A stretch of DNA of 64,000 nt from Candidatus Binatia bacterium (lineage in GTDB: Bacteria > Desulfobacterota > Binatia > Bin18): positions 2,074,947 through 2,138,946 of the forward strand of contig OZ246888.1 in the NCBI GenBank assembly GCA_965231775.1, read 5' to 3'. This document shows positions 2,871-51,296 of this stretch, piece after piece. The stretch's first letter is position 1. Each line of letters begins with the position of its first letter. The position numbers were made by a program, and so were the translations under genes. Below the pieces are notes generated by a model. It did no database searches, was not told the DNA's origin, and was given only the letters and a program-made list of their open reading frames with translations.

Positions 2871-2890
2871 GAAAAAGGTAAGGAGTAGGC

Positions 2891-3127
2891 ATGCCTCGAT
2901 TGACTATTACGCTATCCCATGAGCGGCATGTGGCGCTCAGAGAAGCGGCAGCCCAGCGGGGGAAGACTATCCGCGAACTCATAGAAGAAAGTCTGGATTT
3001 CTACGGTATCAAAACGAGGGCAAACGCAGCCACGCTTGTTGCCCGTGCTCGGAAGCATTCTTCCCTCAATGAGAAAGAAGCTATGGCCCTCGCTGTCAAG
3101 GAGACGAAGGCCGAGAGGCGGGGATGA
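2891..3127 (+). CDS. Ribbon-helix-helix (CopG/VapB-like) antitoxin.
   Basis: 78 aa: MPRLTITLSHERHVALREAAAQRGKTIRELIEE... is a typical RHH N-terminus. Its stop overlaps the start of the downstream PIN gene (ATGA at 3124). Confidence 0.75.
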   Translation: MPRLTITLSHERHVALREAAAQRGKTIRELIEESLDFYGIKTRANAATLVARARKHSSLNEKEAMALAVKETKAERRG

Positions 3128-3552: not shown

Positions 3553-3621
3553 ATGTCATTCGACCAAAGATATGGAAGGCGACCCGGAGTTAACGAAGCG
3601 GAGTCCAAGGGTGGATTCTCT

Positions 3622-3861
3622 TCACAGATTATCTGGAACGCCAGGTACGGGAAGGTCTTCGTGGGCAGAAGCGGCGGCAAAAGCGATTGCCGCGCGAATG
3701 TCTTCTTCTGTGAGTGAGGGAAAATCGGCCAGGATTTCTGCGATGCTTGCTCCCTCAGCTAAGCTCGATAACACCGTCCGCAGCGTTACTCGTGTCTCTT
3801 TGATGACAGGCTCGCCGCCACAGACTCGTGGGTCCCGGATAATCCGACCCTGATAATTCAT
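3622..3861 (-). CDS. DUF433 domain protein (antitoxin-like), apparently orphan.
   Basis: RVCGGEPVIKETRVTL is the hallmark DUF433 motif. 79 aa. No DUF5615-like partner ORF is detectable downstream. Confidence 0.8.
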   Translation of the reverse strand: MNYQGRIIRDPRVCGGEPVIKETRVTLRTVLSSLAEGASIAEILADFPSLTEEDIRAAIAFAAASAHEDLPVPGVPDNL

Positions 3862-3957
3862 AGCGTTCTCTTATCCTTTTATGCTGTGTATTAGACGAAG
3901 ATGTCGCGGCTAAGCGGATTATAGTGTCATTTCGTTGCGACAATCAAAACCATATCA

Positions 3958-6272: not shown

Positions 6273-6336
6273 AATCATTGCAGGGGGTGCGCATGGGGTC
6301 ATCATCGCTATCCCACAGCACAACAATCCCTCGACC

Positions 6337-8830: not shown

Positions 8831-9877
8831 ATGAAAGTCGGCTTAGTTGGATTTGCTCGTTCGGGAAAAACCACTATCTTTAACGCTCTGACTGGTATGA
8901 GCGCCGAGGTCGGTAGCTTTGAAACCAAACGCGACGCCGCGATTGCGGTGGTCAAAGTTCCTGACCCCCGGGTCGATGCCCTGGCCGAGATCGTTCAGCC
9001 GGACCGGAAAAAATACGCGGAAGTGACGTTTCTTGACTTTCCGCCCTCGGCCGAACGCAAGGCCGCGCTTGATACGCGCTCGTTGGCTCAGATGCGCGAG
9101 GTCGAAGCCCTGACGCAAGTGGTGCGCGCCTTTGACGATCCCATGGCGACTGCTCCGGCCGATCCTCTCCGCGCCTTACGTGACTTTCAGTCAGAATTGA
9201 TCCTGGCTGATATGGGGGTGATTGAGAAACGCTTGGAACGGCTACGCAAGGAAAAGGGCAAGGAGCGCGAACGCGAGTTGCTGGAGAAATGCCAGGACGT
9301 ACTCGAAGCCGAGCGGCCGCTGCGGGACGAAGCGTTTCTGCCCGAAGAGGAGATGCTGCTGTCGGGCTTTGCCTTTCTGAGTCAAAAACCCCTGCTCATC
9401 GTCTATAACCGAGCAGAAGAAGAACTGCACGCCGCAGTGCCGCAGGAAGTCGCGTCCTATATTGCGGAACAGGGGCTCACCGCCGTGCCCATCTGTGGCA
9501 AGGTGGAGATGGAAATCGCCGAACTGGAAGAAGACGAACGGGGTCTTTTCCTGGCCGACCTCGGCGTGGAGGGGTCGGCCCGGGATCGGTTCATTCAGTA
9601 TGCCTATCGGATGCTGAACCTCATGAGCTTTTTCACCGCAGGACCGATGGAAGCCCGCGCCTGGACCATAGAGCGCGGCCTGCCGGCGCTCAAAGCCGCC
9701 AGCAAGATTCATTCGGATATTGAACGCGGCTTTATTCGCGCCGAAGTTATTGCCTATGAGGCGTATATCGAACACGGCGGGGAATCCGGCTGTCGGGACG
9801 CGGGAAAAATGCGGCTCGAAGGTAAGGAATACGTCATGCAGGACGGTGATGTGGTCCATTTCCGCTTTAAGGTGTAA
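8831..9877 (+). CDS. ychF: Redox-regulated ATPase YchF (Obg-family GTPase/ATPase).
   Basis: MKVGLVGFARSGKTTIFNALTG is the P-loop start. The C-terminal TGS-like tail reads GKEYVMQDGDVVHFRF. The track ORF begins earlier at 8678, overlapping the upstream gene. Confidence 0.9.
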   Translation: MKVGLVGFARSGKTTIFNALTGMSAEVGSFETKRDAAIAVVKVPDPRVDALAEIVQPDRKKYAEVTFLDFPPSAERKAALDTRSLAQMREVEALTQVVRAFDDPMATAPADPLRALRDFQSELILADMGVIEKRLERLRKEKGKERERELLEKCQDVLEAERPLRDEAFLPEEEMLLSGFAFLSQKPLLIVYNRAEEELHAAVPQEVASYIAEQGLTAVPICGKVEMEIAELEEDERGLFLADLGVEGSARDRFIQYAYRMLNLMSFFTAGPMEARAWTIERGLPALKAASKIHSDIERGFIRAEVIAYEAYIEHGGESGCRDAGKMRLEGKEYVMQDGDVVHFRFKV

Positions 9878-9919
9878 GACGGGGCTGGGCCGAAATGGGG
9901 CAGGCGGGAACACCGCGTC

Positions 9920-10348
9920 TCAGTCGGTGGAGAAAATATGGCCCCACTGACCCTGCGCCAGGTTGGTGACAAAGGCGATATTGCCCTCAAGAAAGTCGTA
10001 GTCGAGGAGCTGCGTCGGTTCCACCCAGGCGAAGGTCTCAAAAACATTATTGGCCAGAGCGCCGTGGTAGGCGGGAACATGGAAAAAGGTCAGCGCCACG
10101 CTCCGACCGTTCGGATAGGCATGACTGGTCCGGTGGAGTTCTTCTCCCAGGGTGGCCTGAATGCCGAGTTCTTCTTCCAGTTCACGCAGCAGGCAGGCTG
10201 CCTCGTCTTCGCCGGTTTTCACTTTGCCGCCGGGGAATTCCCATTTCAGGGCGTGCAGGCCATCTCTGCGCCGCTGACAGATAAGCAGCCGGCTGGAGCG
10301 GGTCACGAGACCGGCCGAGACGCGAATCGGCCGAATGGCATTGGCCAT
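9920..10348 (-). CDS. NUDIX hydrolase (MutT-like).
   Basis: GKVKTGEDEAACLLRELEEELG matches the Nudix box Gx5Ex7REUxEExGU. Confidence 0.85.
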   Translation of the reverse strand: MANAIRPIRVSAGLVTRSSRLLICQRRRDGLHALKWEFPGGKVKTGEDEAACLLRELEEELGIQATLGEELHRTSHAYPNGRSVALTFFHVPAYHGALANNVFETFAWVEPTQLLDYDFLEGNIAFVTNLAQGQWGHIFSTD

Positions 10349-31654: not shown

Positions 31655-32006
31655 GGGGGCGATCTGGTTTCGACGTGGGCTAGAAAGCCAGGGCTGCATG
31701 CCGGGGTTCTGTCCCGCCCGTAAAACGGACAGGCTGCAATTTAACTGCAGACGATTTTGATTACGCTCTTGCTGCCTAGAGCAGCTTGCGTCTTACTGAC
31801 CCGCGCCCGTAGGGTTGGCTAAGGCGACACAAATCGGGATAGGGCTCGCATCGTGCCGAAGGGTGCGCGCCCGAAACTTTACTTTGGCTGGTCTGAGGGC
31901 ATCCTGCTCGTAGGAGGCCCGAGGATGAGATCAAACTACGAGCTACGCATTGTAGATGCCTTGAGTGGACTACTCTCGGACGCGGGTTCGATTCCCGCCG
32001 CCTCCA
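31655..32006 (+). ncRNA. ssrA: Transfer-messenger RNA (tmRNA). Tag reading frame about 31747-31779, giving tag peptide ADDFDYALAA.
   Basis: 5' GGGGGCGATCTGGTTTCGACGTGGG matches the tmRNA 5' acceptor/TLD, with an internal GGCTGCATGCCGGGG. The tag ORF gca gac gat ttt gat tac gct ctt gct gcc tag ends in the typical YALAA. The 3' end is TCGGACGCGGGTTCGATTCCCGCCGCCTCCA (T-arm plus acceptor); CCA is not encoded. Lies immediately downstream of smpB. A possible -10 (ATAATT) is at 31642-31647. Confidence 0.85.
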
Positions 32007-32041
32007 TTTTCTTTCTCCCTAAGAACCCGCAGGGGGTTCGT

Positions 32042-33058
32042 ATGCTTGACTCAATCAAATTTCAGAATTTCAAGATATTACGAAAGGCAACACTTCCGCT
32101 TGCGCCTTTTACCTTAATCGTCGGACCTAACGGGAGTGGGAAGAGTACGGCCTTACAAGCCCTCCAGGCGGTAAACCACACTAGTCACGTAAAATTTCAA
32201 GAGTATGTTACCGCTGGTCTGGAAACCATAGACAATACGGTCGTAAAGATTACACTCCAATGGAGCGAGCTATATGAAAAAGTGGTAACTACCGCGCCTT
32301 GGGCCCGTACCGGCAGCTATCTTCTCCATCATGCTCGACCATCTACAGGTCAAGAGCTACCTCCAGCTTCTGGACATCTGTTAAATTCCCTACTGTCTGG
32401 AATCCGAGTTTATGCGTTAGATGCTTCGGCCATAATTCAGCCCGTCCATCTTGAACCTGCTGTTGAACTTTCCCCAAACGGCCATCGCCTTGCAGGTGTG
32501 ATGGATCGTCTCAGAGATAAAGAGCCCGAGCGATTTGAGGCGTTGAATGATGAGATCGGACGGTGGCTGCCGGAATTCGATCGTATCCTTTTTGAAACGC
32601 CCAAAACCGGACACCGAGCTTTCTTATTACGCACCCGGAAAGGCCATCATAAGATACCAGCTAGAGACCTGTCCCAGGGAACAGTGTTGGCCCTGGCTAT
32701 TCTCACCCTGGTGTACCTTCCTGATCCGCCTCCCCTAATCGGGATAGAGGAACCGGAACGAGGAGTTCATCCTCGCCTTTTACGGAACATCCAGACGGCG
32801 CTCTATCGGTTAAGCTACCCAGAGCAGTTCGGCGAAGAGCGTCAGCCAGTTCAGGTGATTGCAACGACGCATTCTCCGTATTTTCTGGACCTCTATAAAG
32901 ATCATCCTGAAGAAATTGTCATTGCTCAAAAGACTGACGATGGAGCTACATTCGAGCGGTTGTCTGACCAGCCTGACATTATGGAAGTGCTGGACGATGC
33001 TCCCTTGGGCGAGGTCTGGTATAGCGGCATTCTTGGTGGCGTGCCGGCCGAGCAATGA
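32042..33058 (+). CDS. ABC-type/AAA (AAA_21-like) ATPase, lower GC, the first gene of an island at the tmRNA 3' end.
   Basis: Walker A GPNGSGKST, a signature-like LSQGT, Walker B LIGIEEPE and H-loop ATTHSP. AGGGGGT lies 6 nt before the ATG at 32042. The track ORF starts at 31853 inside the tmRNA, which is an artifact. Confidence 0.75.
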   Translation: MLDSIKFQNFKILRKATLPLAPFTLIVGPNGSGKSTALQALQAVNHTSHVKFQEYVTAGLETIDNTVVKITLQWSELYEKVVTTAPWARTGSYLLHHARPSTGQELPPASGHLLNSLLSGIRVYALDASAIIQPVHLEPAVELSPNGHRLAGVMDRLRDKEPERFEALNDEIGRWLPEFDRILFETPKTGHRAFLLRTRKGHHKIPARDLSQGTVLALAILTLVYLPDPPPLIGIEEPERGVHPRLLRNIQTALYRLSYPEQFGEERQPVQVIATTHSPYFLDLYKDHPEEIVIAQKTDDGATFERLSDQPDIMEVLDDAPLGEVWYSGILGGVPAEQ

Positions 33059-33687
33059 AGGTAGCGGTCCTCAGCGAATCGCCAGCGGACGAAGCGGCAA
33101 TTCGTATTCTCATTGACGGCATTATCGGCAGGCAAACTCAACCGGTTGATATGCCTCTAATCCGAACACGCGGCGTCTCCGGCGTCTTCACAATTCTTCC
33201 AACTGTACTCAAGCATTTGCACTACCGAACAGATGCAGATGCTCTCGTTATAGTGGTGGATTCCGACCAGACACCGGTGCATAAGACAGAGCATGAGCAA
33301 GCTGGCGGTGTCGATGAGAGGTGCAGACTTTGCAAAATACGTCGGACCATTGATTCTGTTCTTGCCCGACTTCGACCTGCTCAGGGACGCCCTCAGATTA
33401 AGGTTGCAGTCGGTATAGCCGTTCCAGCGGTAGAAGCCTGGTATCGATGTGGTCTCGACCCGCACGTCACTGAAGCCGCTTGGATAGTAAGTCTGCCGTC
33501 AGGTCCTTTCCCCTATACCATGAGAAGCCTGAAAGAAGATGTGTACGAAACGTCGCGTCCTTCGCTGGACCTGGAAACCCGTCATGCAACAGAAGAAGCG
33601 CGACGGCTCACTCAGGATTTGCCGCTTCTCGAACAATGCTTTCCTACTGGATTCGGTGCCCTGGCTCGTGACGTAAGGAATTGGTAG
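33055..33687 (+). CDS. Small Toprim-like protein (E...DxD) coupled to the ATPase. Candidate OLD/PARIS-like nuclease partner.
   Basis: Start overlaps the ATPase stop (ATGA). N-terminal MKVAVLSESPADE and ALVIVVDSDQ fit a Toprim Glu plus DxD. 210 aa. Confidence 0.5.
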   Translation: MKVAVLSESPADEAAIRILIDGIIGRQTQPVDMPLIRTRGVSGVFTILPTVLKHLHYRTDADALVIVVDSDQTPVHKTEHEQAGGVDERCRLCKIRRTIDSVLARLRPAQGRPQIKVAVGIAVPAVEAWYRCGLDPHVTEAAWIVSLPSGPFPYTMRSLKEDVYETSRPSLDLETRHATEEARRLTQDLPLLEQCFPTGFGALARDVRNW

Positions 33688-33741
33688 CGGCTGAGAGGCT
33701 GCCGTCGCCCGGACAGGGCGCAGTCTGTCACACCGAGCGCC

Positions 33742-36700
33742 TCACCCCGCACCAGCCTGCTCATACGCAAGCCCGAACACCGTATCGGTCAGCCAGCGCT
33801 TGAAGCTCTGGTTGTCCATGAACTGCTTGAACAGCTCGGTGTCGTCCTTCATCACCGAGGTCATCACCCGGAGCAGCGCCTTGTCGTGTTCGATACGGGC
33901 GTTCTCCCGGTCCGAGTTCTGCTGAGCGTTCTTGAAGGCCGTGTCCTCGGCCACCCTGGCAGGAATGGTCTGGGTAATGAGCTGCCGCACACGGTCGGCA
34001 TCGTCCCAGTCGATATCGCCGAAGAGATCGTTGAAGGCCCGCAGGATATTCGACAGCCGGTCCAACTCCGGCTCGGGCAGGTGGCCGCCGCCTATGGTCG
34101 GCACAGGTTCGATCTCGGCATCCTCGTCGGGTAGCATGATTTTCTGTATGGCCTGCTTCTCGGCCCGATAGCTGTCCATGTCGATGGCGTCGAGAATGCC
34201 CTTGGACAGGTCCTCCTCTTGGGGGGAGGGTAGCTTGGAGACCAGGAAATTCAGGAATATCGAGCGTTTCTCCCAGTCCGCGTTGGTATAGGGCAGGACC
34301 GACGACAGGAAGCCGTAGGTCCGCACAAAGCCCTTGGCCTTGCCCTTGAAGTCCACCTGGCCGTCTTCGTCCAAATCGCCCAGATAGACTGCCACGCAGG
34401 CATCGAGGATGGGGTCGAGCTGGTCACGTTCGGCTCCGCTAAGATAACGTGACACAAAGGCGTCGATCTGCTCGGAAGAATAGACCTGAGCGCCGTCAAG
34501 ATCAGCCTGCAAATCGTGCAGCTTGTTGGGGTCGGTCTCATCGGCCAGAATCGTCGCCCGATAGAAGCCGGCAAAGGACTCACAGATAATTGCGGTCTTG
34601 TTCAGAAAATCCAGCACGAAGACATCGTGCTTCTTGGGATGCGCCCGGTTGAGGCGCGACAGGGTCTGCACCGCCTTAACGCCCGCGAGCGTCTTGTCCA
34701 CATACATCGTGTGCAGCAGGGGCTCGTCATAGCCGGTCTGGAACTTGTCCGCACAGATCAGGAAACGGTAGGGGTCCTCTTGTATCTTCTCGGCGATCTT
34801 GCCGGACGGAAAACCGTTGAGCGACGCCTCGCTGACCTTGACTCCGCCGAACTCGGGCTCACCGGAGAACGCCACTATGGCCTGGTAACGGCTCTTGCGT
34901 TCTTTCAGGTAGTCGCGGATGGCGTGAAAGTACTGGATAGCGCGCTCAATACCGTTGGTGACGACCATGGCCCGTGCCTGGCCGCCGATCTTGTTCTGGG
35001 CCAGCACCTGCTCGTGAAAATGATCGACCATGATCTCGGCCTTGAGACGAATGGCATGGTCATGGCCCTCGACAAAGCGCCGCAGCTTCTTCTGGGCTTT
35101 CTTCGTATCGAACTGCGGGTCGTCTTCTACCGTCTTGGCCAGCTTGTAATAGCTGCTCACCGGCGTGTAGTGGGCCAGCACGTCCAGGATAAAGCCCTCC
35201 TGGATGGCCTGCTTCATGGTGTAGGTGTGAAAGGCGTGATGCTTGACCGTGCCGTCGGCCTGCGGGTCCGGGTTGCCGAAGATTTCCAGGGTCTTGTTCT
35301 TGGGCGTGGCCGTAAAGGCGAAGTAGCTGGCGTTGGGGAGCAGCTTGCGCGACTCCATCAAACGGTTGATCTGGTCCTCATAGGTCTCCTCTTCGCCCTC
35401 CTCACCGGCCCGGGACAGCGCCTGCGCCATGGCCGCGCTGGTGCGGCCGCCCTGGCTGGAGTGGGCCTCGTCGATGATAATGGCGAAGCGCCGCCCGCGC
35501 TGCTCGTCGCCGATCTCGTCGAGGATGAAGGGAAACTTCTGCACGGTCGAGATGATGATCTTCTTGCCGGACTCGATGAAGCGGCGCAGGTCGCCCGAAC
35601 GCTCGGCATGCCCGAGTGTCGCGCCGACCTGGGCGTACTGTTTGATGGTATCGCGAATCTGCTTGTCGAGAATCCGCCGGTCGGTGACCACGATGATCGA
35701 GTCGAAGACCGGGCTATCGTCTTTTGCCAGCCCGATCAGTTGATGCGCCAGCCAGGCAATGGAGTTGCTCTTGCCGCTGCCCGCCGAGTGCTGGATTAAA
35801 TAGCGCCGGCCCACGCCACGCGTCCCGGCGTCGGCTAGCAGCCGGCGCACCACGTCGAGCTGGTGGTAGCGCGGCCAGACCTGGGTCTTTTTCTTCCTGC
35901 CCGTCTTCTCGTCCCTGGACTCTACCACTTGGGCATAATTCTCCAGAATGTTGGTCAGGCTCTGGCGGGTCAGCACCTCACGCCACAGGTAGTCGGTCTT
36001 GAGCCCGTTCGGGTTGGGTGGGTTGCCCGCGCCGTCGTTCCAGCCCCGGTTGAAGGGTAGAAACCACGAGGACTTGCCCTGGGGGTGGGTGCAGAAGCGC
36101 GCTGCGCTCTCGTCCACGGCGAAGTGGGCCACGCAGCGCCCGAGTGCAAACAGCTTCTCGCGCGGGTTGCGGTCTTTTTTGTACTGCCAGACCGCGTCGT
36201 CCACGGTCTGCTTGGTCAGGCTGTTCTTGAGTTCAAAGGTAAAGACCGGCAGGCCGTTGATGAACAGCCCGATATCCAGCGCCCGCTGGGTTTCGTCGCG
36301 GCTGTAGCGTAGCTGGCGGGTAACGGTGAAGCGGTTCTGCTCGAAGCGTTCCTTCGCCTTCTGGTTGCCGGCTGAAGGCGTGCCGTAGAACAGGGCCAGG
36401 TGGTGCGACCCGTGGTCGAGGCCGTGGCGCAGCACGTCGATGCTGCCGCGCTTGGCAATCTCGCCCTGGAGCCGGGCCAGGAATTTACGCCGTGTGGGGC
36501 CGTCCTCGGACAGCCCCAGCGATGCCGCGGCCTTGGGTTGGGTGGCACGCAGGAAGGCCGAGAGCTGGACCAGATCGACGCAGTATTCCCGGTCGTAGTC
36601 GTGGAAGTTGCCGCCGCTCCAGCCCACACCGCCGTAGCCGGCGGGTGGTTCGGCCACTGTGCCCGTGGCGGGCGGCTCGCAGGGATGGCCGGCCAGCGCG

Positions 36701-36747
36701 GTGCAGATGAGGCGTTCGAGACCGCGTTCGGAGGTGTCGGTGGGCAT
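33742..36747 (-). CDS. hsdR: Type I restriction enzyme R subunit.
   Basis: 1001 aa with SF2 helicase motifs (QHSAGSGKSNSIAW, IIIDEAHSSQG) and N-terminal nuclease-domain similarity. Confidence 0.9.
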   Translation of the reverse strand: MPTDTSERGLERLICTALAGHPCEPPATGTVAEPPAGYGGVGWSGGNFHDYDREYCVDLVQLSAFLRATQPKAAASLGLSEDGPTRRKFLARLQGEIAKRGSIDVLRHGLDHGSHHLALFYGTPSAGNQKAKERFEQNRFTVTRQLRYSRDETQRALDIGLFINGLPVFTFELKNSLTKQTVDDAVWQYKKDRNPREKLFALGRCVAHFAVDESAARFCTHPQGKSSWFLPFNRGWNDGAGNPPNPNGLKTDYLWREVLTRQSLTNILENYAQVVESRDEKTGRKKKTQVWPRYHQLDVVRRLLADAGTRGVGRRYLIQHSAGSGKSNSIAWLAHQLIGLAKDDSPVFDSIIVVTDRRILDKQIRDTIKQYAQVGATLGHAERSGDLRRFIESGKKIIISTVQKFPFILDEIGDEQRGRRFAIIIDEAHSSQGGRTSAAMAQALSRAGEEGEEETYEDQINRLMESRKLLPNASYFAFTATPKNKTLEIFGNPDPQADGTVKHHAFHTYTMKQAIQEGFILDVLAHYTPVSSYYKLAKTVEDDPQFDTKKAQKKLRRFVEGHDHAIRLKAEIMVDHFHEQVLAQNKIGGQARAMVVTNGIERAIQYFHAIRDYLKERKSRYQAIVAFSGEPEFGGVKVSEASLNGFPSGKIAEKIQEDPYRFLICADKFQTGYDEPLLHTMYVDKTLAGVKAVQTLSRLNRAHPKKHDVFVLDFLNKTAIICESFAGFYRATILADETDPNKLHDLQADLDGAQVYSSEQIDAFVSRYLSGAERDQLDPILDACVAVYLGDLDEDGQVDFKGKAKGFVRTYGFLSSVLPYTNADWEKRSIFLNFLVSKLPSPQEEDLSKGILDAIDMDSYRAEKQAIQKIMLPDEDAEIEPVPTIGGGHLPEPELDRLSNILRAFNDLFGDIDWDDADRVRQLITQTIPARVAEDTAFKNAQQNSDRENARIEHDKALLRVMTSVMKDDTELFKQFMDNQSFKRWLTDTVFGLAYEQAGAG

Positions 36748-36799: not shown

Positions 36800-37321
36800 T
36801 CATCTCGGTGGGCTCCAATGCAACTGGACGCCAAGCCGGCGTAGCATTTCAAAAGGACTGATACATTCCACATCAAAGGCGCGGCAAACGTTGGGTAGTG
36901 GGACTCGTCTGCGCACGTTCGGGTCGAATTGCTCCAGGGTGACCACGACACACCCTGTCTGCTTGGCATAGGCCGCAAGCCAGCCGTCGGCGACGTCTTG
37001 AAATTCTGTCTTAGCGGTGTCCTGGAACTGGGGCTGAGCCATCACCCATATCAACATTTGCTGGTACTCCGACGTAATAGCCGCTGTCGAAGTATCTACA
37101 AACGCGTTGGCACCGAATCGCTGTTCTGCCCAGTCCCAAAGGTCATCTCCTCCGCGTTTCAGTTCCTCCTGAACTCTGTCGATACTGTAGAGCCTTCCTT
37201 CCCGGTTGTAGTAGATAAGCACATGCCAATAGCCTGGACAGAAATCGAAGTCATAGAATCGCCGCTTCGCTTGAATAAAGACGTTGGCATCCAGCACATA
37301 TCTCTCATCTGCCTCGCTCAT
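36800..37321 (-). CDS. DUF4411 (PIN-like) family protein.
   Basis: N-terminal YVLDANVFIQAKRRFYDFDFCPGYW. 173 aa. Lies directly downstream of an ImmA/IrrE gene. Confidence 0.7.
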   Translation of the reverse strand: MSEADERYVLDANVFIQAKRRFYDFDFCPGYWHVLIYYNREGRLYSIDRVQEELKRGGDDLWDWAEQRFGANAFVDTSTAAITSEYQQMLIWVMAQPQFQDTAKTEFQDVADGWLAAYAKQTGCVVVTLEQFDPNVRRRVPLPNVCRAFDVECISPFEMLRRLGVQLHWSPPR

Positions 37322-37326
37322 TACGG

Positions 37327-38469
37327 CTACAATCCGAGTGTCTGCGCAAATTGGTCGAAACTCCGGCCATGCAGACCCGTGAGGCGATACGCGTCACGGT
37401 ACAGTAGCCGGCCCTCCCGCGCTGCACGAATGACCGCGCTACCGAAGCGACGGCCGACACGTCCCCGTTGCGCGTTGTAGAAATTCCCCCCACTCGATTG
37501 CTGCGCAGATCTTCGCCGTTCGTCAGCCTTGTATCGATCCAGGAATCCGTAGAAATCGTCTCCCGCCATCAACTCTCGATCCAACACTCGCCGGGCCGCT
37601 ACGAGGGGGCTGACCTTGAAGCGCCTCGCCAGCGCTTGAAACGGTTCGGCCGACTCGGCCACGCTCGGCCAGCAGCCATCAAGCTCGTCTCCCGGAATCA
37701 GTACTTCCGCCGCAACCTCGTTACAAAATCTTTCAACATCATCGTCGTAGGGCTGGAGGTTCACCAAGTTGAACACACCGCCTGTCCCCAACCACAGGTG
37801 GGCCAGTTCGTGCGCCAGGGTAAACATCTGAGCAGACGTGAAGTCCGCTCCGTTGATGAAGATTAAAGGCGCGTAATCGTCGCAGAGCACAAATCCCCGA
37901 AATTCCTCCGGGTCCAGTTTCTGTCGCGTATTGTTCTCCACGACGCCGTTGACGACGACCAAAACACCTATCTCTTCCACCGCCTGCCGAAGCCCAACGA
38001 GCGCGGCGGACCATGTAGGGTGCGTGCTCGCCCAGCCATCATCGACACCGAGTGTCCTTCGGATATTGTTGGCCGCGTCCACGCGACTCGAAGCCAACGT
38101 GACAGTCCCGACGAAGGCAAGAGGTTCTTCGCCTACCTCGATAAGATATTCGCGCATCCACTCTTGCCGCCGCTGCATTTGCCGCACAGTGGTTATCAGT
38201 GCCGCGCTCGGCCGCGCCGGCTGCTGGCCTTTGAGGGTGCGAAAATCAGCAACCGGTAATTTCTCATCCGGCGGCTCCTCTAAAAGCAAGGCTCCGAAGG
38301 GTGTGAGCGTCGCCTTTGCAAACCGCTCCAATTGCTTAAACGTCGGCTGCGCCTCACCGCCTTCCCACTGTGGCAGCTTCGGGAAGCGCTTCGCCAAGTC
38401 AGACATGTCCTTTCCCGAGCGCTCGCGCGCCCAGCGAACCACTGCGGGGTTCACCGCGACCTTGTTCAT
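37327..38469 (-). CDS. HTH (XRE-like) + ImmA/IrrE family metallopeptidase (DUF955).
   Basis: HELAHLWLG is the HExxH zinc peptidase motif, and the N-terminus is HTH-like. The start is chosen at MNKVAVNP; the track begins at 38511. Confidence 0.75.
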   Translation of the reverse strand: MNKVAVNPAVVRWARERSGKDMSDLAKRFPKLPQWEGGEAQPTFKQLERFAKATLTPFGALLLEEPPDEKLPVADFRTLKGQQPARPSAALITTVRQMQRRQEWMREYLIEVGEEPLAFVGTVTLASSRVDAANNIRRTLGVDDGWASTHPTWSAALVGLRQAVEEIGVLVVVNGVVENNTRQKLDPEEFRGFVLCDDYAPLIFINGADFTSAQMFTLAHELAHLWLGTGGVFNLVNLQPYDDDVERFCNEVAAEVLIPGDELDGCWPSVAESAEPFQALARRFKVSPLVAARRVLDRELMAGDDFYGFLDRYKADERRRSAQQSSGGNFYNAQRGRVGRRFGSAVIRAAREGRLLYRDAYRLTGLHGRSFDQFAQTLGL

Positions 38470-38517
38470 ATTGATAACACAGCACCCTGACCGGCTACGG
38501 TCAATCTTCAAAGTCGT

Positions 38518-39903
38518 CTATCGCTCAGCATATGCCGCGTCAATCAGAGCTTTAGCCTTATCAAACTGCTTTGGTTCGGCTTCCCCATCCGGCAACCGTA
38601 CAGCTGCCTCGCGCACGTCGAGCTTGCCGGTGACGACATCGGCGATCAGGCGGGTGCGGTATTCGTGGAGGATAGCTTGCTCTTTGCGGCAATTACCTAT
38701 CGCTATGGCGATCTTGCTCTGTTCCTCATCCAGGACCGCAGCGATTCGGTCCTGTTCGGACACTGGTGGAACCGCGATCAAGAGGGCCTTGATGTCCGCG
38801 ACGTTAATTCGATTGAACGTTGAACCGACAAGGAGCAATGCAAGTTGATCTGACATGACCTTGCTGTGCAGGAAGTAGTTTAGCCATCGCTGGTTCTCGG
38901 AAGAGGACCTGATGAGACATACATCTTGTCCCATCGCGAAACGATCCTCTGTCGTGACAAGGGCAGCGGCCCCAACGCTTACGTTGCGGCAATAGATCAG
39001 GTCTCCAGGCCGAGGCTCCCTTCCTCCTTCGATCAGCTTCTCATACCATTCGGGAGTGGTACGGTTTGATGCTTTGAAGTTTAGCTCGAAGGACTGTGCT
39101 TCCCGTACGCTGGCCAAGGGAATACCACCATCGACGAAAGGCACTGTAAGGTGCTTGCAGTCGATAACCTGCCATTTCCTCCGGAGTGCAACCACCTCCC
39201 AATGCTCCGGCACCTCCCCCAGCCACTCCACGCCGGAGGGCTTGTAGACCGGGTAGGGCTGGCCGGTGCGGATGTCGATCTGGCCGGTGACGGCTTGGTG
39301 GATGAGGGCCTGCTTCTGCTCTTCCAGCAGCGCAATCAGCTTCTCCTTGGCGTGGATGTAGCACCGGATGCGCCGGTCGGCGTGGTCGAGGAAGCGGGCG
39401 ATGGCGGTTTGTTCGGAGAGGGGCGGGACACCCAGCTCTATATTCCTAACCTGCTTTGATGAGAGATGTTTGACGGTCGTAGAGTGTGCAAGGTCCCCAA
39501 TGATCTTTAATGGTAGTTCAACAGCGCGGACAATAAACCCTGCGCGGGAGGAATTTTTCGCTCGGAGACAACACATCCTCTGATTTAGCAAGGCGGCCGG
39601 TCCCCGCCATCGCGCAACGTTGAACAATCCGTCCATCCCCACGATGATATCACCCGTTTCAATCAGAGCCTCTTCAACGATGGCACCACCGTAATTCACC
39701 TCTGTCTTGATAGCGTGCAAATCGCGAATCCGAATAAGCGGTGTTCCTTCTCCCTTCACAAAGTACTGCGAGTCAAAGGGATAGCCGTTGACTACTGTGG
39801 CAATGCTGGACAAACGAGACACCTCCCAATGTGCCGGCACCTCTCCCAGCCACGGCACACCGGAATCCTTGTAGGCAGGGTAGGGTTTCAGTTCGGCGGC
39901 CAT
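38518..39903 (-). CDS. hsdS: Type I restriction-modification specificity subunit (two target-recognition domains).
   Basis: Duplicated architecture with a repeated WLGEVPxHWEV...L and the central and C-terminal conserved helices of HsdS. 461 aa. Confidence 0.85.
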   Translation of the reverse strand: MAAELKPYPAYKDSGVPWLGEVPAHWEVSRLSSIATVVNGYPFDSQYFVKGEGTPLIRIRDLHAIKTEVNYGGAIVEEALIETGDIIVGMDGLFNVARWRGPAALLNQRMCCLRAKNSSRAGFIVRAVELPLKIIGDLAHSTTVKHLSSKQVRNIELGVPPLSEQTAIARFLDHADRRIRCYIHAKEKLIALLEEQKQALIHQAVTGQIDIRTGQPYPVYKPSGVEWLGEVPEHWEVVALRRKWQVIDCKHLTVPFVDGGIPLASVREAQSFELNFKASNRTTPEWYEKLIEGGREPRPGDLIYCRNVSVGAAALVTTEDRFAMGQDVCLIRSSSENQRWLNYFLHSKVMSDQLALLLVGSTFNRINVADIKALLIAVPPVSEQDRIAAVLDEEQSKIAIAIGNCRKEQAILHEYRTRLIADVVTGKLDVREAAVRLPDGEAEPKQFDKAKALIDAAYAER

Positions 39904-40235: not shown

Positions 40236-42221
40236 TCATGACTTGCTGTTACCCCCGATGATCTCGTCCAACAACCCCTCCGTCTCTTGCTCCAGTGACA
40301 GAATATCCGCCCGGATGTCCGCTAGCGTCCGCAGGGGCTGCGGCTTGTAGAAGTAGCGGGTGAAGCTGATCTCGTAGCCGACCTTCACGTTGTCGGGCTG
40401 ATACCAGGCGTCAGAGGCGTAGGGCAGGACCTCGCGCTGTAGGAAGGCTTCGATCCCGCCCGCCTCTTGCAATGGAATCTGCTCGGTGTCGCGCAGGTCG
40501 GTGTCGGGCTCGTACTCCACCACGGCGGGTTTGCCGTTGATGGTGGTGGCGAACAGGCCACGTAACGAGTCAGCTTCCGTGCCTTTCTTGTGAAATTTCT
40601 TGATGACGGGTGGCGCGTCCTCGCTGCGCTCGCCGTTTTCTTTGAGCTTCTTGATCTCGGCAGCCTTGTAGGCGCGATTGGGGTCAGTGCCTTGGATACG
40701 CAGCGGTCGCTCGACCGTGACCTTCCAATAGCCGAAGGCGGCGTTGTCGAATATTTTGCTCTGCTGGCTCTCCTTGAAGTCAAGAAAGGTGTCGCAGATA
40801 CGAGCGATGTCTTCCTCTGACAGCTCACAGTTCTTCTTGCCCAGGTTCTTGCGCAAAGGCCGGTACCAGGTAGTAGCGTCGATCAACTGCACCTTGCCCC
40901 GGCGATGCGCGGGCTTGCGGTTGGTCAGCACCCAGACGTAGGTGGCGATGCCGGTGTTGTAGAACATATTGAGGGGCAGAGCGACGATGGCCTCCAGCCA
41001 GTCGTTCTCGATAATCCAGCGGCGGATATTGCTCTCGCCCTGCCCGGCGTCGCCGGTGAACAGCGAGCTACCGTTGTGCACCTCGGCGATGCGGCTGCCG
41101 AGCGGGGTGTCCTGCTTCATCTTGGAGAGCTTGTTGGCGAGAAAAAGCATCTGACCGTCGCTCGAACGGGTGACCAGCGAATACTCGGGGTCGCCGGCAT
41201 GTTCGATCACGAAGCGCGGGTCGCGCATGTCCTGCTTGCCGCCCATGCGCTCCAGGTCGGTCTTCCAGCTCTTGCCGTAGGGCGGGTTGGACAGCATGAA
41301 ATCGAACTCGCGGGCCGGGAAGGCATCGTTGGCCAGGGTGGAGTGTTCCGGGCCGCCCACGATGTTGTCGGCGGCTTCTCCCTCACCCTTGAGCAAGAGG
41401 TCGGCGGTGCAGATGGCGTAGGTCTCGGCGTTGATCTCCTGGCCGTAGAGATGGGTGGATACGTCCTTGTCGTACTCGGCGGCGAGTTGCCGCAGGGTGT
41501 CTTCGGCCACGGTCAGCATGCCGCCGGTGCCGTAAGCGCCGTCATAGAGCAGATAGGTGCCGGATTTGATTGCGTCGGCAATGGGTAGGAAAACGAGCCT
41601 GGCCATGAGGGTTACGGCGTCGCGCGGGGTCCAGTGTTCGCCGGCCTCCTCGTTGTTCTCCTCGTTGAAGCGGCGCACCAGCTCCTCGAAGATCGAACCC
41701 ATGCCGTGGTTGTCGAGGCCGGGGTGTTTGACCGAGCCGTCGGTGTTGAGGACCGGGGCTGGGCTCAGGTTGATATCGGGCGAGGTGAGCTTCTCGATCA
41801 GCGTGCCCAGGGCGTCGGCTTTGGACAGGCGCGTAATCTGGTTGCGAAACTCGAAGTTGTCGAGGATGTCCTGCACGTTGGGCGAGAACCCATTGAGGTA
41901 GTCTTCAAAGTCTGCCGTCAACTGCTGGCGATTGGCGCGGGCTCTGAGGTCGCGCAGGGTGAACTTGGAGGTGTTGTAGAACGCCTGGCCCGCGGCCTGG
42001 CGCAGGGCCGGGTCCTGTTCGACCACGCCCGCCGTATCGAGGCTGGCCCGCATGTCCAGGACGGCCTGCTTGCTGTCTTCCAGGACCGCATCCAGCCGGC
42101 GCAGTACGGTCATGGGCAGGATCACGTCGCGATACTTGCCACGCACGTACAGGTCGCGCAGCACGTCGTCGGCAATGCCCCAGATGTAGTTGGCAATCCA
42201 GTTCAGGTCGGTGGTGCTCAT
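40236..42221 (-). CDS. hsdM: Type I restriction-modification DNA methyltransferase (N6-adenine).
   Basis: FMLSNPPYGKSWK is the NPPY catalytic motif, and the N-terminal HsdM domain begins MSTTDLNWIANYIWGIADDVLR. The start is chosen at 42221; the track extends to 42431. Confidence 0.9.
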   Translation of the reverse strand: MSTTDLNWIANYIWGIADDVLRDLYVRGKYRDVILPMTVLRRLDAVLEDSKQAVLDMRASLDTAGVVEQDPALRQAAGQAFYNTSKFTLRDLRARANRQQLTADFEDYLNGFSPNVQDILDNFEFRNQITRLSKADALGTLIEKLTSPDINLSPAPVLNTDGSVKHPGLDNHGMGSIFEELVRRFNEENNEEAGEHWTPRDAVTLMARLVFLPIADAIKSGTYLLYDGAYGTGGMLTVAEDTLRQLAAEYDKDVSTHLYGQEINAETYAICTADLLLKGEGEAADNIVGGPEHSTLANDAFPAREFDFMLSNPPYGKSWKTDLERMGGKQDMRDPRFVIEHAGDPEYSLVTRSSDGQMLFLANKLSKMKQDTPLGSRIAEVHNGSSLFTGDAGQGESNIRRWIIENDWLEAIVALPLNMFYNTGIATYVWVLTNRKPAHRRGKVQLIDATTWYRPLRKNLGKKNCELSEEDIARICDTFLDFKESQQSKIFDNAAFGYWKVTVERPLRIQGTDPNRAYKAAEIKKLKENGERSEDAPPVIKKFHKKGTEADSLRGLFATTINGKPAVVEYEPDTDLRDTEQIPLQEAGGIEAFLQREVLPYASDAWYQPDNVKVGYEISFTRYFYKPQPLRTLADIRADILSLEQETEGLLDEIIGGNSKS

Positions 42222-42374
42222 CTTTTTGCGTATCCCTGAGGGGCCTGTAGCGGATATCACACGGAACGCAGGACACAACACTCCGGGCGTGTACCGAAGG
42301 GCAGAGGCGAGGCAGGGGCCTACGGAACAGAGGAGAGCCTTACGGATCGCGGGGCAGGCGTCAATCCCTGCTCT

Positions 42375-42540
42375 TATGTGGGTGTCGGCGAACCCACTCA
42401 TGCCGATGCCATCCTCGACCGGTTGGTGCACAACGCCTATCGCATCGAGCTGAGGGGCGAATCGATGCGAAAAATCAACGCCGGGAGAGGTAGACGACTC
42501 AAGGCCAAGGTTTTACTGTACGAAGGCTATGAGGGAGAAT
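42375..42540 (+). mobile_element. IS21-family istB C-terminal remnant (pseudogene fragment).
   Basis: Frame translation ...[43 protein letters not shown]...* matches the conserved IstB C-terminus (AILDRL..H....I.L.GeSyR). No N-terminal ATPase part or istA is present. Confidence 0.55.
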
Positions 42541-48044: not shown

Positions 48045-48311
48045 ATGCCAAATATGATTCGGACTCAGGTACAGCTTAAAGAACAGCAGTTGCGCCGATT
48101 GCGGGCACTTGCTGCGGAGCGAGGATTATCGATTTCCGAGTTGGTGCGTAACGGAGTGGATCATATCCTCAGTCACGCCGAGCGAGGGGAGCACGGAGAC
48201 CGGGCGCAGCGTGCAATCGCCGCCGCGGGACGCTTCCATTCCGGACGCGCCGACGTGGCCCGTCGCCATGACGCCTATCTTGCCGCCGCTTATGAAACAC
48301 CCGAGGGGTGA
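48045..48311 (+). CDS. Ribbon-helix-helix antitoxin.
   Basis: MIRTQVQLKEQQLRRLRALAAERGLSISELVRNGV is an RHH. Overlaps the downstream PIN gene start. Confidence 0.65.
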   Translation: MPNMIRTQVQLKEQQLRRLRALAAERGLSISELVRNGVDHILSHAERGEHGDRAQRAIAAAGRFHSGRADVARRHDAYLAAAYETPEG

Positions 48312-48708
48312 AGAAGTATTTATCGACACGTCCGCTTTCTATGCTGTGCTGGACGCGGCCGATGAGGTGCATGCTCGGGCACGTGTGGGGTGGATGGGAC
48401 TGATCCGCGACGGCAACCCATTGGTGACCTCGAACTACGTATGTGTGGAGACCTGCGCTCTTGTTCAAGCGAGGCTCGGTATGGATGCCGTGCGTATTTT
48501 GTTCGACGATATGCTGCCGATGGTGACCGTGGTCATGCTCGATGAGACACTCCACACGAACGCTATCGCAACCTTGCTCGGAGCCAATAGGCGGAACCTG
48601 AGCTTAGTGGACTGCACGAGCTTTGCGATGATGCGCCACCGCGGCACGAGCACGGTATTTGCCTTTGACCAGCACTTTGCCGAACAAGGTTTCCAACTCG
48701 TGTCGTAG
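48289..48708 (+). CDS. vapC: PIN-domain toxin (VapC family).
   Basis: VFIDTSAFYAVLDAADEVH...SNYVCVETCAL...SLVDCTSFAMM has the PIN acidic residues. The start is at MKHPRGEE (48289), inside track ORF 48109..48708. Confidence 0.75.
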   Translation, partial: LMKHPRGEEVFIDTSAFYAVLDAADEVHARARVGWMGLIRDGNPLVTSNYVCVETCALVQARLGMDAVRILFDDMLPMVTVVMLDETLHTNAIATLLGANRRNLSLVDCTSFAMMRHRGTSTVFAFDQHFAEQGFQLVS

Positions 48709-48786: not shown

Positions 48787-50028
48787 CTACTCCAACACCT
48801 CGGCAATCACTAACTCGGTGATCTTCTCCTCGTTATAGCCCAGAATATTCTCCAACACGTTCTGATTCTCACGTCCCAGCGTCGGGGCAGAGCGGTTAAT
48901 CTCCGCCGGGGTGCGGGAGAATTTGAAACGGCTGCCTTCGACGGTAGTCTTGCCGAAGTCGGGATGCTCCAGGTCTACAAAGTGCTCACGGTGCTGAAGC
49001 TGCTTGTCCTCGTACAATTCGTTTATGGTTTCGACTGCGCTGGCCGGAACGTTTTTGGCCTGGAGCTTTTCTTCGGCTTCATATGGGTTGAACTGGTTGC
49101 TCCAGGCGTTGATGGCTTTATCGATCTCGTCCTGATTGGCCAGCCGGCCTTTGACGGTGGCAAGACGCTCGTCACTGCCGAGGTCCGGGCGGTTCATGGT
49201 CTCGCACAGCGAGCGCCACTGGTCGTCGGTTTCCACGCCGATCGCTACCCAGCGATCCTCTCCTGCGGACGGATACACCCCGTGCGGGGCGAAGTTCATA
49301 TCCCGGTTGCCCATACGGGTCTGGGTCCGTCCGTTGACGGTTTGATCTAAAAGAAACGGCGCCAGAAAATGGAGGGCGGCTTCGGCCTGCGCCAGGTCAA
49401 TATGCTGGCCTTTGCCAGTCTGGTGCTTGTGTTCCAATGCCGCTAGCACGGCCGCGGCGTTATACCAGGGTGCAATATAGTCGGTGTAGGCACCGAATGG
49501 TCCAGCCGGCTCGCGGTCGGGCCAGCCGGTGGGATCGAAAAATCCTGAGACGGCGGCCGCCAGATTCCCAAACCCGGCGAAGTGAGAATGCGGCCCGGTC
49601 TGGCCCATCAGACAGGTGCTGAGCATGATGATGTCAGGCTTGATTTTTGTGAGCGACTCGTAGTCAAAGCCCCACTCCCGCATGGCTTTGGGAGAAAAGG
49701 ACTCGGTCACCACGTCGGCCCAGCGCACCAGGTCCAAAATGATGTCGCGCGACTCCGGTTTGGACAGATTCAGGGTCATCGGCAGTTTGCCCGTGTTCAT
49801 ATTATTGTACAAACCGGAGTTGTTCGGGCCGGGTTGCTTGTTTTGAAAAGGCCCGACCATGCGCACCGCGTCAAAACGGGTGGTGGATTCAACCCGCACG
49901 ACGGTCGCCCCGTAGTCGGCCAAAATACGCGTCGAGCCAGGGCCGGCCATGGCCCACATGAAATCGAGTACTTTGACCCCAGCCAGGGCTTGATTACTTT
50001 TACTGCCAGTCTGTTGTCCCTCTGCCAT
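48787..50028 (-). CDS. CoA transferase family III (CaiB/BaiF-like).
   Basis: LAGVKVLDFMWAMAGPGSTRILADYGATVVRVE N-terminus. 413 aa. Confidence 0.85.
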   Translation of the reverse strand: MAEGQQTGSKSNQALAGVKVLDFMWAMAGPGSTRILADYGATVVRVESTTRFDAVRMVGPFQNKQPGPNNSGLYNNMNTGKLPMTLNLSKPESRDIILDLVRWADVVTESFSPKAMREWGFDYESLTKIKPDIIMLSTCLMGQTGPHSHFAGFGNLAAAVSGFFDPTGWPDREPAGPFGAYTDYIAPWYNAAAVLAALEHKHQTGKGQHIDLAQAEAALHFLAPFLLDQTVNGRTQTRMGNRDMNFAPHGVYPSAGEDRWVAIGVETDDQWRSLCETMNRPDLGSDERLATVKGRLANQDEIDKAINAWSNQFNPYEAEEKLQAKNVPASAVETINELYEDKQLQHREHFVDLEHPDFGKTTVEGSRFKFSRTPAEINRSAPTLGRENQNVLENILGYNEEKITELVIAEVLE

Positions 50029-50054
50029 GGTTACTCCTCCTGAGTGAGTCTCGG

Positions 50055-51296
50055 TCAGATTATCCCTTTGTTTTGCAACTCTGCTAAGGCTTGGGCGTCA
50101 AGGCCGAGTTCGCCATAGACCTCGACATTGTGCTCACCAATCCTCGGCGGACGCCGCTTATAGTCAATCGGCTGCTCGCTGAACTTGGCAAACGGACCGG
50201 GATAAGCAAAGGCTTTGCCCATCTCCTCATGGTCAACCGCAGTCCAGTATTGACGCGACTCCAACTGCTCGCTTTCGACGACCTCGTCAATCGTGGTGAC
50301 CGGGGCGACAAGCAGGCCACGGTCCAGGGCGTTCCGGAACAGCTCTTCTTTGGTTTTGGTCTTGGTGAAATCTTCAACGATCAGTTTGAGGCGTTCATAG
50401 TCTTCAAGCGTTTTCGGGTCGCCACCAAACAGGCCGCCGCCCATATTAACCCAGTCCATCTGTTGGACTTCTTTGTCACAAAACCCCTCTTCATAGATCC
50501 AGTCCATCAGACGCTTGGTGAAATGGGCAAACGCCGAGCCAAACAGATAGGCAATCGAAACATGCCCGTCTTTCGCCGGCCAGAGCAGGCGGATTTCCAA
50601 CGGCCCCATTTTTGCTCCACCGGCCATCCGGCGGGTTTCCGCATCGTTGAGCGGAGCCGAGAGTATGGTTGACTGGGTTGCCTGGGCCGCCGCCTGCTGG
50701 GCGGAAATATCAATATGCTGACCGTGGTTTGAGCGGTGGGATTCGTACAGGGCAATCAGCGCGGCCGGCGCCGCCGCGGCGCTGGCGTGCAGATAGCCCT
50801 GGGGCAGGCTCAGGCGGACCGGCGGGCGGTCTTCGTCGCCGGTAATGACGAGCGGCCCGCTGCTGGCCAGAATAATCAGATCGCTGTCCGCATAGCTGGC
50901 TTTCGGGCCGTCTTGTCCAAAGGGGGTAATCGAGACATAAATCAGCCCCGGATTGTCCGCCGCTAACTCGTCATAGCTCAAGCCGTATTGGGCCAGGCTG
51001 CCGGGATTGTCCGATTCGATCAGAAATTTTGCGTCTCGTGCCAGACGCCGAAGAAGGCCCTGTCCTTCGGATTGCGTGATATCGAGCGTGACCCCCCGTT
51101 TATTGCGGTTATAGGCCCACCAGTAGAGCGAGTTCTCCGCATCTTCTTGATCCTGATAGAAGGGCCCCAGCTTGCGAGCCGAGGAGCCGCCGGGGGGCTC
51201 GATTTTAATCACGTCAGCGCCAAGATCGGCCAGGATTTGGCCACACAGCAGTCCGCGTTCTGTTGTCAGATCAAGAACTCGATAAGGGTTGAGCAT
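50055..51296 (-). CDS. CoA transferase family III (CaiB/BaiF-like), tandem paralog.
   Basis: YRVLDLTTERGLLCGQILADLGADVIKIE N-terminus. 413 aa. Confidence 0.85.
   Translation of the reverse strand: MLNPYRVLDLTTERGLLCGQILADLGADVIKIEPPGGSSARKLGPFYQDQEDAENSLYWWAYNRNKRGVTLDITQSEGQGLLRRLARDAKFLIESDNPGSLAQYGLSYDELAADNPGLIYVSITPFGQDGPKASYADSDLIILASSGPLVITGDEDRPPVRLSLPQGYLHASAAAAPAALIALYESHRSNHGQHIDISAQQAAAQATQSTILSAPLNDAETRRMAGGAKMGPLEIRLLWPAKDGHVSIAYLFGSAFAHFTKRLMDWIYEEGFCDKEVQQMDWVNMGGGLFGGDPKTLEDYERLKLIVEDFTKTKTKEELFRNALDRGLLVAPVTTIDEVVESEQLESRQYWTAVDHEEMGKAFAYPGPFAKFSEQPIDYKRRPPRIGEHNVEVYGELGLDAQALAELQNKGII

Follow-up and report, generated by a model that had tools for sequence, protein, structure and literature searches.

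A mobile gene pair encoding an SMC-like ATPase and a small Toprim-fold protein next to ssrA in a Binatia bacterium, and its possible role in defence

We analysed a stretch of 64,000 nucleotides of contig OZ246888.1 from a Candidatus Binatia bacterium (hereafter the window), in which two short genes encoding an ATP-binding cassette (ABC) ATPase and a 210-residue Toprim-like protein (hereafter the partner) directly follow ssrA, the only transfer-messenger RNA (tmRNA) gene that ARAGORN found in the window. The coordinates of the features are given in Table 1. A first-pass annotation, made from the sequence, had described these as the first two genes after ssrA, translationally coupled by an ATGA overlap and poorer in GC than their surroundings, and all of this holds. 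The GC content of the pair is 51.6%, compared with 58.3% in the window as a whole and 59–62% in the flanking genes. The GC content of third codon positions is 46.9% in each of the two genes, against 67–78% in panC, smpB and the amidase gene, and only 4.9% of the segments of equal size are as AT-rich. The two-gene cassette, foreign in base composition, was horizontally acquired, and ssrA, directly upstream, is an insertion hotspot.

The start codon of the ATPase is preceded by a Shine-Dalgarno sequence (AGGGGG) at about 7 nucleotides. Since all 50 aligned homologues start at the methionine encoded at 32042, the short form of the protein is the real one. A longer reading frame that starts at a GTG at position 31853 is an artefact: it overlaps the tmRNA gene, and the extension is present in none of the 50 homologues. 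One public database gene call (P0391, 377 residues) is accordingly over-extended over positions 31853–32041, with its start inside the tmRNA gene, because the frame remains open across ssrA. Scans of the leader between ssrA and the ATPase gene gave no promoter-like or terminator-like sites.

The ATPase matches the Pfam domains AAA_21 (E = 4.9e-27) and AAA_15 (5.5e-20). Its best PADLOC model is HEC-01A, of the candidate system HEC-01 (1.6e-45, 153.8 bits, a partial match in two stretches; here and below the HEC-01 comparisons are raw model E values and bit scores, without PADLOC's own thresholds), followed by generic AriA/AAA_21-like profiles, mad3 and Old. The best NCBIfam model is MAD3, with 124.6 bits for a cutoff of 420. 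When we compared the profile of the ATPase family with solved structures, the best sequence match was the Class 1 OLD nuclease of Thermus scotoductus (1.6e-17). The predicted fold grouped with the heads of SMC, Rad50, OLD, AriA and GajA, apart from transporter subunits, and its model lacks a long helical insert. The conservation of the motifs was judged on the alignment of the 50 homologues. The Walker A, signature-like and H-loop motifs have invariant cores, and around the Walker B motif (IEEPERGVHP) the residues E236, E237, P238, G241, H243 and P244 are invariant. The C-terminal tail is also conserved across this alignment. The earlier description of an AAA_21/OLD-like ATPase with Walker A and B, signature-like and H-loop motifs was therefore accurate. 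In comparison with a canonical HEC-01A (421 residues), the alignment of the protein is confined to the P-loop and to the part beginning at residue 114; the approximately 80 residues in between are absent.

The partner was more difficult to class. None of the models of Pfam (even at E ≤ 1), NCBIfam or PHROGs matches it, and its only PADLOC match is a weak one with HEC-01B (1.9e-4, 19.6 bits) over the N-terminal 130 residues. The profile of the partner family had a best E of 0.7 against all PDB sequences, where the DUF4276 profile found nothing, and a Foldseek search of the PDB with the partner model gave no match at E ≤ 0.001. Among the structural matches of this model, the Thermus OLD was second best. 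The model itself is confident (pLDDT, the predicted local distance difference test, 92.4; predicted template modelling score, pTM, 0.89; from an alignment of 47 sequences). It shows, in order, a strand (2–6), a helix, a short strand (28–29), a helix (40–58), two strands (63–69 and 116–122) and a helix (126–130), i.e., a four-stranded parallel sheet between helices, similar to known Toprim domains. The residues expected in Toprim domains are at their positions: E8 follows the first strand, G40 the second, D69-S-D71 the third, and E127 is on the helix after the fourth. The first-pass annotation had anticipated a Toprim protein from the N-terminal glutamate and the strand with its DSD motif, and the predicted structure supports it.

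The decisive link came from plasmid-borne distant relatives of the ATPase, whose downstream, translationally coupled partners are annotated as DUF4276. The alignment by hhalign of a DUF4276 profile (36 sequences) with the profile of the partner family gave a probability of 90.3% (E = 1.4e-6, 118 columns), restricted to residues 1–133. It pairs E8 with the VEE motif of DUF4276, D69xD71 with DRD, and E127 with the glutamate of LEAWYF. Because the profile-profile match aligns these three elements, we assigned the partner to the Toprim proteins via DUF4276. DUF4276 (Mad4) and RloB were recently placed in the Toprim superfamily (PMC12065111). Single sequences gave no match between the partner and the DUF4276 protein of Acinetobacter, and a weak one (28%) with that of Meiothermus; only the comparison of profiles is convincing. 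The two families are distinct at the level of Pfam, since PF14103 is carried by none of the 120 listed members of the partner family and by all 120 listed homologues of the Meiothermus protein. The profile searches suggested earlier for this protein thus had a mixed outcome: DUF4435 and the Pfam DUF4276 did not match, whereas the profile-profile alignment did, and the HEC-01B model gave the weak N-terminal match.

We counted the conservation of the partner over 141 representatives with 36–57% identity to the protein of the window. The acidic set E8/D12/D69/D71/E127 is kept in 97–100% of them, with the exception of position 71, which is an aspartate in 106 and an asparagine in 35. G40, between the short strand and the long helix, is a glycine in 129. 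In the OLD nuclease of Burkholderia, the residues E400/E404/D455/D457/E508 bind two metals (PMC6755086). From the sequence alignments and the predicted secondary structure, the acidic residues of the partner would parallel this set in the same order, with E127 as a candidate ligand of the second metal, comparable to E508. The partner thus has a Toprim fold, is a homologue of DUF4276 and has intact, conserved catalytic residues; it would be a metal-dependent nuclease.

A feature that distinguishes the partner from DUF4276 is an insertion right after the strand of the DxD motif, which together with the following helix bears H76, H80, C90 and C93. All four residues are found in 97 of the 141 representatives and none in 14, for 0.1 expected under independent loss. 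Most sequences lacking H80 have an additional cysteine a few residues further on (H...C...CxxC), and many of the cases with three of the four residues have a replacement cysteine. Because the all-or-none retention and the swapping of ligands resemble a structural zinc site, we propose that the insertion probably is one.

The two genes form one unit. The partner family comprises 1,169 clusters at 90% identity, all unnamed and devoid of Pfam domains; at 50% identity, 1.84 billion representatives yielded 685 clusters, nearly all of them standalone proteins of 200–220 residues. We found it in 429 of 185,579 species genomes, all metagenome-assembled, from Binatia, Acidobacteriota, Planctomycetota, Verrucomicrobiota, Gemmatimonadota and others. 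In 77 of 80 species-level loci the gene immediately upstream, in the same orientation, is that of the ATPase. For two of the three exceptions the upstream DNA is missing, which leaves 77 of 78 testable loci, and the pair itself resembles HEC-01. The refutation tests proposed in the first-pass annotation, co-occurrence being one of them, left its interpretation standing. The remaining exception (locus L056, 4196–4849) has an ORF of 914 residues on the opposite strand upstream of the partner instead of the ATPase. The genes overlap by four nucleotides in 59 of the 77 loci and by one nucleotide in three more, and the pairwise distances of the ATPases and partners are correlated (Mantel r 0.595, none of 999 permutations as high). 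The ATPase and the partner are therefore near-obligately adjacent, coupled and co-diverging. There was no fused ATPase-Toprim form among the best 150 representatives, and the nearest neighbours at about 75 loci included no conserved third gene. An ORF of 1,150 residues downstream of the pair in Opitutaceae was considered as a third gene; it encodes an Aas-like acyltransferase/acyl-CoA ligase and reflects synteny, not function. Four neighbours matching "pVip" coincide with four neighbours matching Radical_SAM/Mob_synth_C (MoaA-type), and are probably cross-hits.

The pair is also mobile. The unit recurs at 84–89% DNA identity in six other genomes (L001–L005 and L023), in three contexts: after ssrA (the window, L003 and L023), beside a nicotinate phosphoribosyltransferase gene (L002, L004 and L005), and beside a type I restriction-modification (R-M) cluster (L001). 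Its borders are sharp, the homology extending from approximately 30 nucleotides before the ATG of the ATPase to approximately 22 nucleotides after the stop of the partner, and in three genomes the left border falls on the mature 3' end of the tmRNA. These 1.7 kb thus move as a unit between contexts. We found no flanking repeat, integrase, promoter or terminator of the cassette. An integrative element at ssrA was rejected, given that there was no second tmRNA 3' end within three mismatches, no integrase among the annotated genes of the island, and neither a promoter nor a terminator in the stretch from ssrA to the ATPase gene. The cassette may be transcribed by read-through from ssrA.

In the window the neighbours of the pair are the genes of HsdR, DUF4411, an M78 peptidase, HsdS and HsdM, and then metabolic genes. 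The DUF4411 and M78 genes are embedded between hsdR and hsdS, and the peptidase has weak PADLOC matches to capP and RmrA. Because L003 and L023 have the pair without R-M genes, we regard the R-M cluster as a separate insertion. In L003, the closest genome, the block is absent and the amidase gene starts 35 nucleotides after the pair, whereas in L001 the order is permuted, with the R-M cluster upstream of the pair and not downstream. An HsdM-like gene was found within 10 kb in only two of the 80 loci, plus the window, and we therefore rejected an obligate link between the pair and type I R-M. In L001, a Binatia genome, the first third of the ATPase gene beside the R-M cluster (9013–10004) is interrupted by in-frame stops or frameshifts, and the partner gene is intact; this lesion is either a decaying gene or an error of long-read assembly. 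In the plasmid pMtWR-220 of Meiothermus taiwanensis (L081, 717–6630), a canonical pair of ATPase and DUF4276 lies inside a type I R-M operon, in the order hsdS, DUF4433, macro, ATPase, DUF4276, hsdR.

Table 1. Positions in the window of the two-gene cassette, its motifs and the adjoining features.
Feature	Position	Strand	Details
tmRNA gene ssrA	31655..32006	+	Tag peptide ADDFDYALAA; directly 5' of the cassette; ARAGORN
Leader, 35 nucleotides	32007..32041	+	Mature tmRNA 3' end to ATPase ATG; AGGGGG Shine-Dalgarno; sequence
Limits of the mobile two-gene unit	32013..33706	+	blastn against L001–L005 and L023; border alignments
SMC/Rad50/OLD-type ABC ATPase (AAA_21/AAA_15)	32042..33058	+	338 residues; no coiled-coil insert; conserved C-terminal tail GEVWYSGILGGVP
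Walker A/P-loop, G28-P-N-G-S-G-K34-S	32123..32146	+	Invariant in 50 homologues
Signature-like motif, L210-S-Q-G-T214	32669..32683	+	S211 and G213 invariant in 50 homologues
Walker B and catalytic Glu, L-I-G-I-E236-E237-P-E, then G-V-H243-P	32735..32758	+	50 homologues
H-loop, T-T-H277-S	32864..32875	+	T276, H277, S278 and P279 invariant (TTHSPY) in 50 homologues
ATGA overlap, partner ATG / ATPase TGA	33055..33058	+	Translational coupling; sequence
Toprim-like protein, distant DUF4276 relative	33055..33687	+	210 residues; Toprim core 1–133; family-specific helical C-terminal region 134–210
Toprim Glu E8 and D12/E13 (E-x3-D-E)	33076..33093	+	E8 in 139/141, D12 in 137/141; equivalent to E400/E404 of Burkholderia OLD by inferred alignment
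DxD motif, D69-S-D71 (preceded by V-V)	33259..33267	+	End of strand 63–69; D69 in 141/141; aligned with D70-x-D72 of DUF4276
Family-specific insertion with H76, H80, C90 and C93	33280..33333	+	15 residues right after the DxD strand, gapped relative to DUF4276
E127 in the P-A-V-E-A-W helix	33433..33435	+	After the last core strand; E127 in 137/141, W129 in 141/141; aligned with E114 of DUF4276 in LEAWYF
Type I R-M insertion relative to L003	33710..42408	-	8.7 kb, outside the module; Pfam, PADLOC; collinearity break with L003
hsdR	33742..36747		
DUF4411 (PIN-like) gene	36800..37321		
M78/ImmA-IrrE-type peptidase gene	37327..38511		
hsdS	38518..39903		
hsdM	40236..42431		

Two other regions of the window stand out. 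A second stretch (approximately 2500–6300) is more AT-rich than the pair (GC 0.43–0.52). It carries a PIN_3 gene (3124–3552) and two ORFs that overlap by four nucleotides (3958–4812 and 4809–6272) and have no Pfam match; they may be another acquired two-gene module. Further downstream, an ORF of 199 residues with a PIN domain (48109–48708) lies amid metabolic genes, next to paralogues of the CoA-transferase family III (48787–51296), and may be the remnant of a toxin-antitoxin system.

How might the pair work? The SMC/Rad50-like ABC ATPase would be an ATP-driven sensor and regulator. Translational coupling would provide it in fixed proportion with the Toprim nuclease, and the two proteins would probably form a complex. 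The trigger would most likely be a cue from a phage or another invading element, and the binding or hydrolysis of ATP would then license the Toprim site to cut nucleic acid, either DNA (as OLD and GajA do) or tRNA (as AriB does). The catalytic site made of E8/D12, D69xD71 and E127 would be laid out for catalysis by two metals, in the manner of OLD and RNase M5. The H/H/C/C insertion would probably bind zinc, and so stabilise or position a loop binding the substrate or the other protein. Cutting would stop the invader or the infected cell.

We regard it as very likely that the two genes encode an ATPase-controlled Toprim nuclease pair. The complete scheme, in which this ATPase-switched nuclease defends the cell against phages or invading DNA, is the one we favour, with a confidence slightly above even. 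Several lines of evidence make it plausible. The pair resembles, in its architecture, systems of the OLD, PARIS and HEC-01 kind. It has a foreign composition and is mobile. It lies in the ssrA hotspot, and its neighbour is a type I R-M system that carries DUF4411 and M78 genes within it. Distant DUF4276-type cousins are found inside a type I R-M system (the Meiothermus plasmid) and in MADS, where mad3 and mad4 are needed for protection.

Other observations weigh against a role in defence. The neighbours of the pair in about 75 species-level loci mostly have housekeeping functions (acyltransferase/MFS, MoaA, ABC transporter, SmpB, EF-G and nicotinate phosphoribosyltransferase), and only about one in ten of the immediate neighbours is defence-like; this minority includes MADS-like, GmrSD-like, R-M and PD-T4-6 genes. 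Relatives of the partner were absent from the viral contigs of IMG/VR, from the phage collection and from the plasmid collection. The second aspartate of the DxD motif is an asparagine in 25% of the representatives, and the promoter scan detected no promoter for the cassette. We know of no defence phenotype for the family of the window. HEC-01, for its part, protected against none of the phages tested in the published assay.

A special case of defence is that the pair guards the adjacent type I R-M system, releasing the nuclease when a phage inhibitor disables restriction ("anti-anti-restriction"). There are precedents: PARIS senses Ocr, and PrrC senses Stp within EcoprrI. The same type I R-M cluster borders the pair both in the window and in L001, cousins of the DUF4276 type are embedded in type I R-M, Hma and MADS, and PARIS, which senses an anti-restriction protein, is a related system of ATPase and Toprim. 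We nevertheless find a guard unlikely, given the separate insertion of the R-M cluster, its absence next to the pair in L003 and L023, the rarity of HsdM-like genes within 10 kb and the mostly housekeeping neighbourhoods.

These same neighbourhoods could suit a selfish addiction cassette, similar to a toxin-antitoxin system, in which a Toprim toxin is restrained by the ATPase and loss of the cassette kills the cell, with no primary role against phages. The unit is compact, promoter-less, mobile and tightly coupled, is scattered among housekeeping genes outside defence islands, and has in HEC-01 a relative that gave no protection. The orphan partner of L056 and the interrupted ATPase next to an intact partner in L001 can be cited for this explanation. 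Yet in both cases the nuclease is present without an intact ATPase, which argues against a free partner being strongly toxic. In addition, no related system of ATPase and Toprim is known as a classical toxin-antitoxin pair, and the order of the genes (ATPase, then nuclease) and the strong constraint on the ATP-hydrolysis motifs fit a regulated enzyme better than a simple antidote. Addiction is therefore improbable as the main function.

An accessory role in DNA repair or recombination, such as the processing of ends or gaps for the host, would be comparable to RecF with RecR, or to SbcC/SbcD. RecF is an SMC-like ABC ATPase and RecR a Toprim protein with a zinc finger. This role, suggested by analogy, seems very improbable. 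Finally, the ATPase as an ordinary ATP-binding subunit of an ABC transporter, next to an unrelated small gene, is effectively refuted: the matches to ABC_tran and to the transporter models of NCBIfam are weak and confined to the P-loop, there are no adjacent genes for permeases or binding proteins, and the fold is that of SMC/Rad50/OLD heads and not of a transporter nucleotide-binding domain, in line with the first-pass annotation, which had disfavoured a transporter.

Within the favoured reading, that of an ATPase-switched nuclease acting in defence, a bolder version can be formulated. The pair might represent a distinct, unnamed two-gene immune family of uncultured phyla from soil and sediment, invisible to Pfam, NCBIfam, PHROG and in effect PADLOC, where a zinc-stabilised mini-Toprim effector is under the control of a minimal SMC-like ATPase, and where a promoter-less cassette of 1.7 kb inserts precisely at the ssrA 3' end, its expression coming from read-through of the tmRNA gene. 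We consider this combination unlikely as a whole. If it were true, the expression of the cassette would be tied to the ribosome-rescue RNA of the cell.

Modules combining an ABC ATPase with a Toprim protein (OLD, Gabija, PARIS) rank among the immune systems most widely found in bacteria. To our knowledge, the branch of the DUF4276 type (HEC-01, Mad3/Mad4) has no known mechanism, and HEC-01 no demonstrated activity. The family described here adds to it a compact and well-conserved branch (approximately 685 clusters at 50% identity, 429 species genomes), whose very small ATPase and predicted nuclease of 210 residues are left as "hypothetical" by current annotation tools. A profile built from the partner family would allow defence-annotation tools to recognise the pair. 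The small size of the proteins and the confident models make it tractable for studying how an SMC-like head might control a Toprim nuclease, and mutagenesis has an obvious target in the putative zinc insertion. The importance of the family is limited by its already known architecture and by a function predicted from sequence.

The ATPases of the AAA_15/21 type have partners with TOPRIM_OLD, DUF4435, RloB or DUF4276 (PMC11464382). By sequence comparison, the partner of the window is a distant relative of DUF4276, and the closest named entities are HEC-01 and the Mad3/Mad4 proteins of MADS. The first-pass annotation had placed the pair near OLD, PARIS and Gabija: the shared architecture stands, and the nearest relatives are those of the DUF4276 type instead of PARIS (DUF4435) or Gabija. 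HEC-01 is a PADLOC candidate made of the ABC ATPase HEC-01A and the DUF4276-type Toprim protein HEC-01B (Payne et al., bioRxiv 10.1101/2024.01.29.577857). Like the pair of the window, it has adjacent coupled genes for an AAA_21/AAA_15 ATPase and then a Toprim protein of approximately 210 residues with the E, DxD and E-A-W motifs, and it is sometimes inside or adjoining R-M-type systems. Its two models are the best PADLOC matches of the ATPase and of the partner. However, the pair lies far outside the modelled diversity. Three true pairs of ATPase and DUF4276, used as controls, matched HEC-01A with E values of 1e-145 to 4e-199 and HEC-01B with 1e-79 to 3e-97, in contrast with 1.6e-45 and 1.9e-4 in the window; among 47 members of the partner family, 25 matched HEC-01B at E ≤ 0.01, the best at 2.3e-5. 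The ATPase is smaller (338 residues, for 364–430 in HEC-01A), its segment from Walker A to the helical region being approximately 80 residues shorter, and the partner has the 15-residue H/H/C/C insertion, an unrelated C-terminal third and no Pfam match to DUF4276. The suspicion of a distinct variant was thus justified.

In the methylation-associated defence system MADS, the ATPase Mad3 is of the AAA type and Mad4 is a Toprim protein of the DUF4276 family (PMC12065111), and deletion of mad3 or mad4 lowers the protection by MADS against phages. The ATPase of the window matches the MAD3 models and six of the 47 members of the partner family touch the mad4 model. Yet membership of MADS was rejected, since the ATPase scores below the MAD3 cutoff and the mandatory mad6, mad7 and mad8 are not among the neighbours. 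PARIS differs more: AriA (approximately 53–55 kDa) has insertion sequences and a coiled-coil bundle, and AriB has approximately 35 kDa, whereas the proteins of the window have 338 and 210 residues, the ATPase lacks AriA-type insertions, and the partner has no match to DUF4435/AriB in Pfam or PADLOC. The AriA matches of the ATPase come from generic AAA_21/AAA_15-like profiles, and neither an Ocr-type trigger nor a tRNA target is known for the family. We therefore excluded PARIS. The pairs of the AbiL/RloB type, an AAA_21 ATPase with a Toprim-like RloB, have the same two-gene layout, and the ATPase matches AbiLi weakly (7.1e-16), but the RloB models of Pfam and PADLOC do not match the partner.

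The OLD family (Classes 1–4, including GajA of Gabija) shares both domains with the pair, as well as the predicted two-metal chemistry of the Toprim site, and the Thermus OLD is prominent among the matches of both proteins to known structures. OLD and GajA carry both domains on a single polypeptide, whereas here they are encoded by separate genes and the partner has no match to the Pfam TOPRIM_OLD. Class 2 OLD and Gabija also need a UvrD-type helicase gene; we found no UvrD/GajB-type gene in the window or among the common neighbours in the 75 loci. The pair is thus not a member of OLD or Gabija. It is best described as a self-contained, mobile two-gene system of the OLD/PARIS/HEC-01 kind, whose architecture is known and whose branch had remained unannotated.

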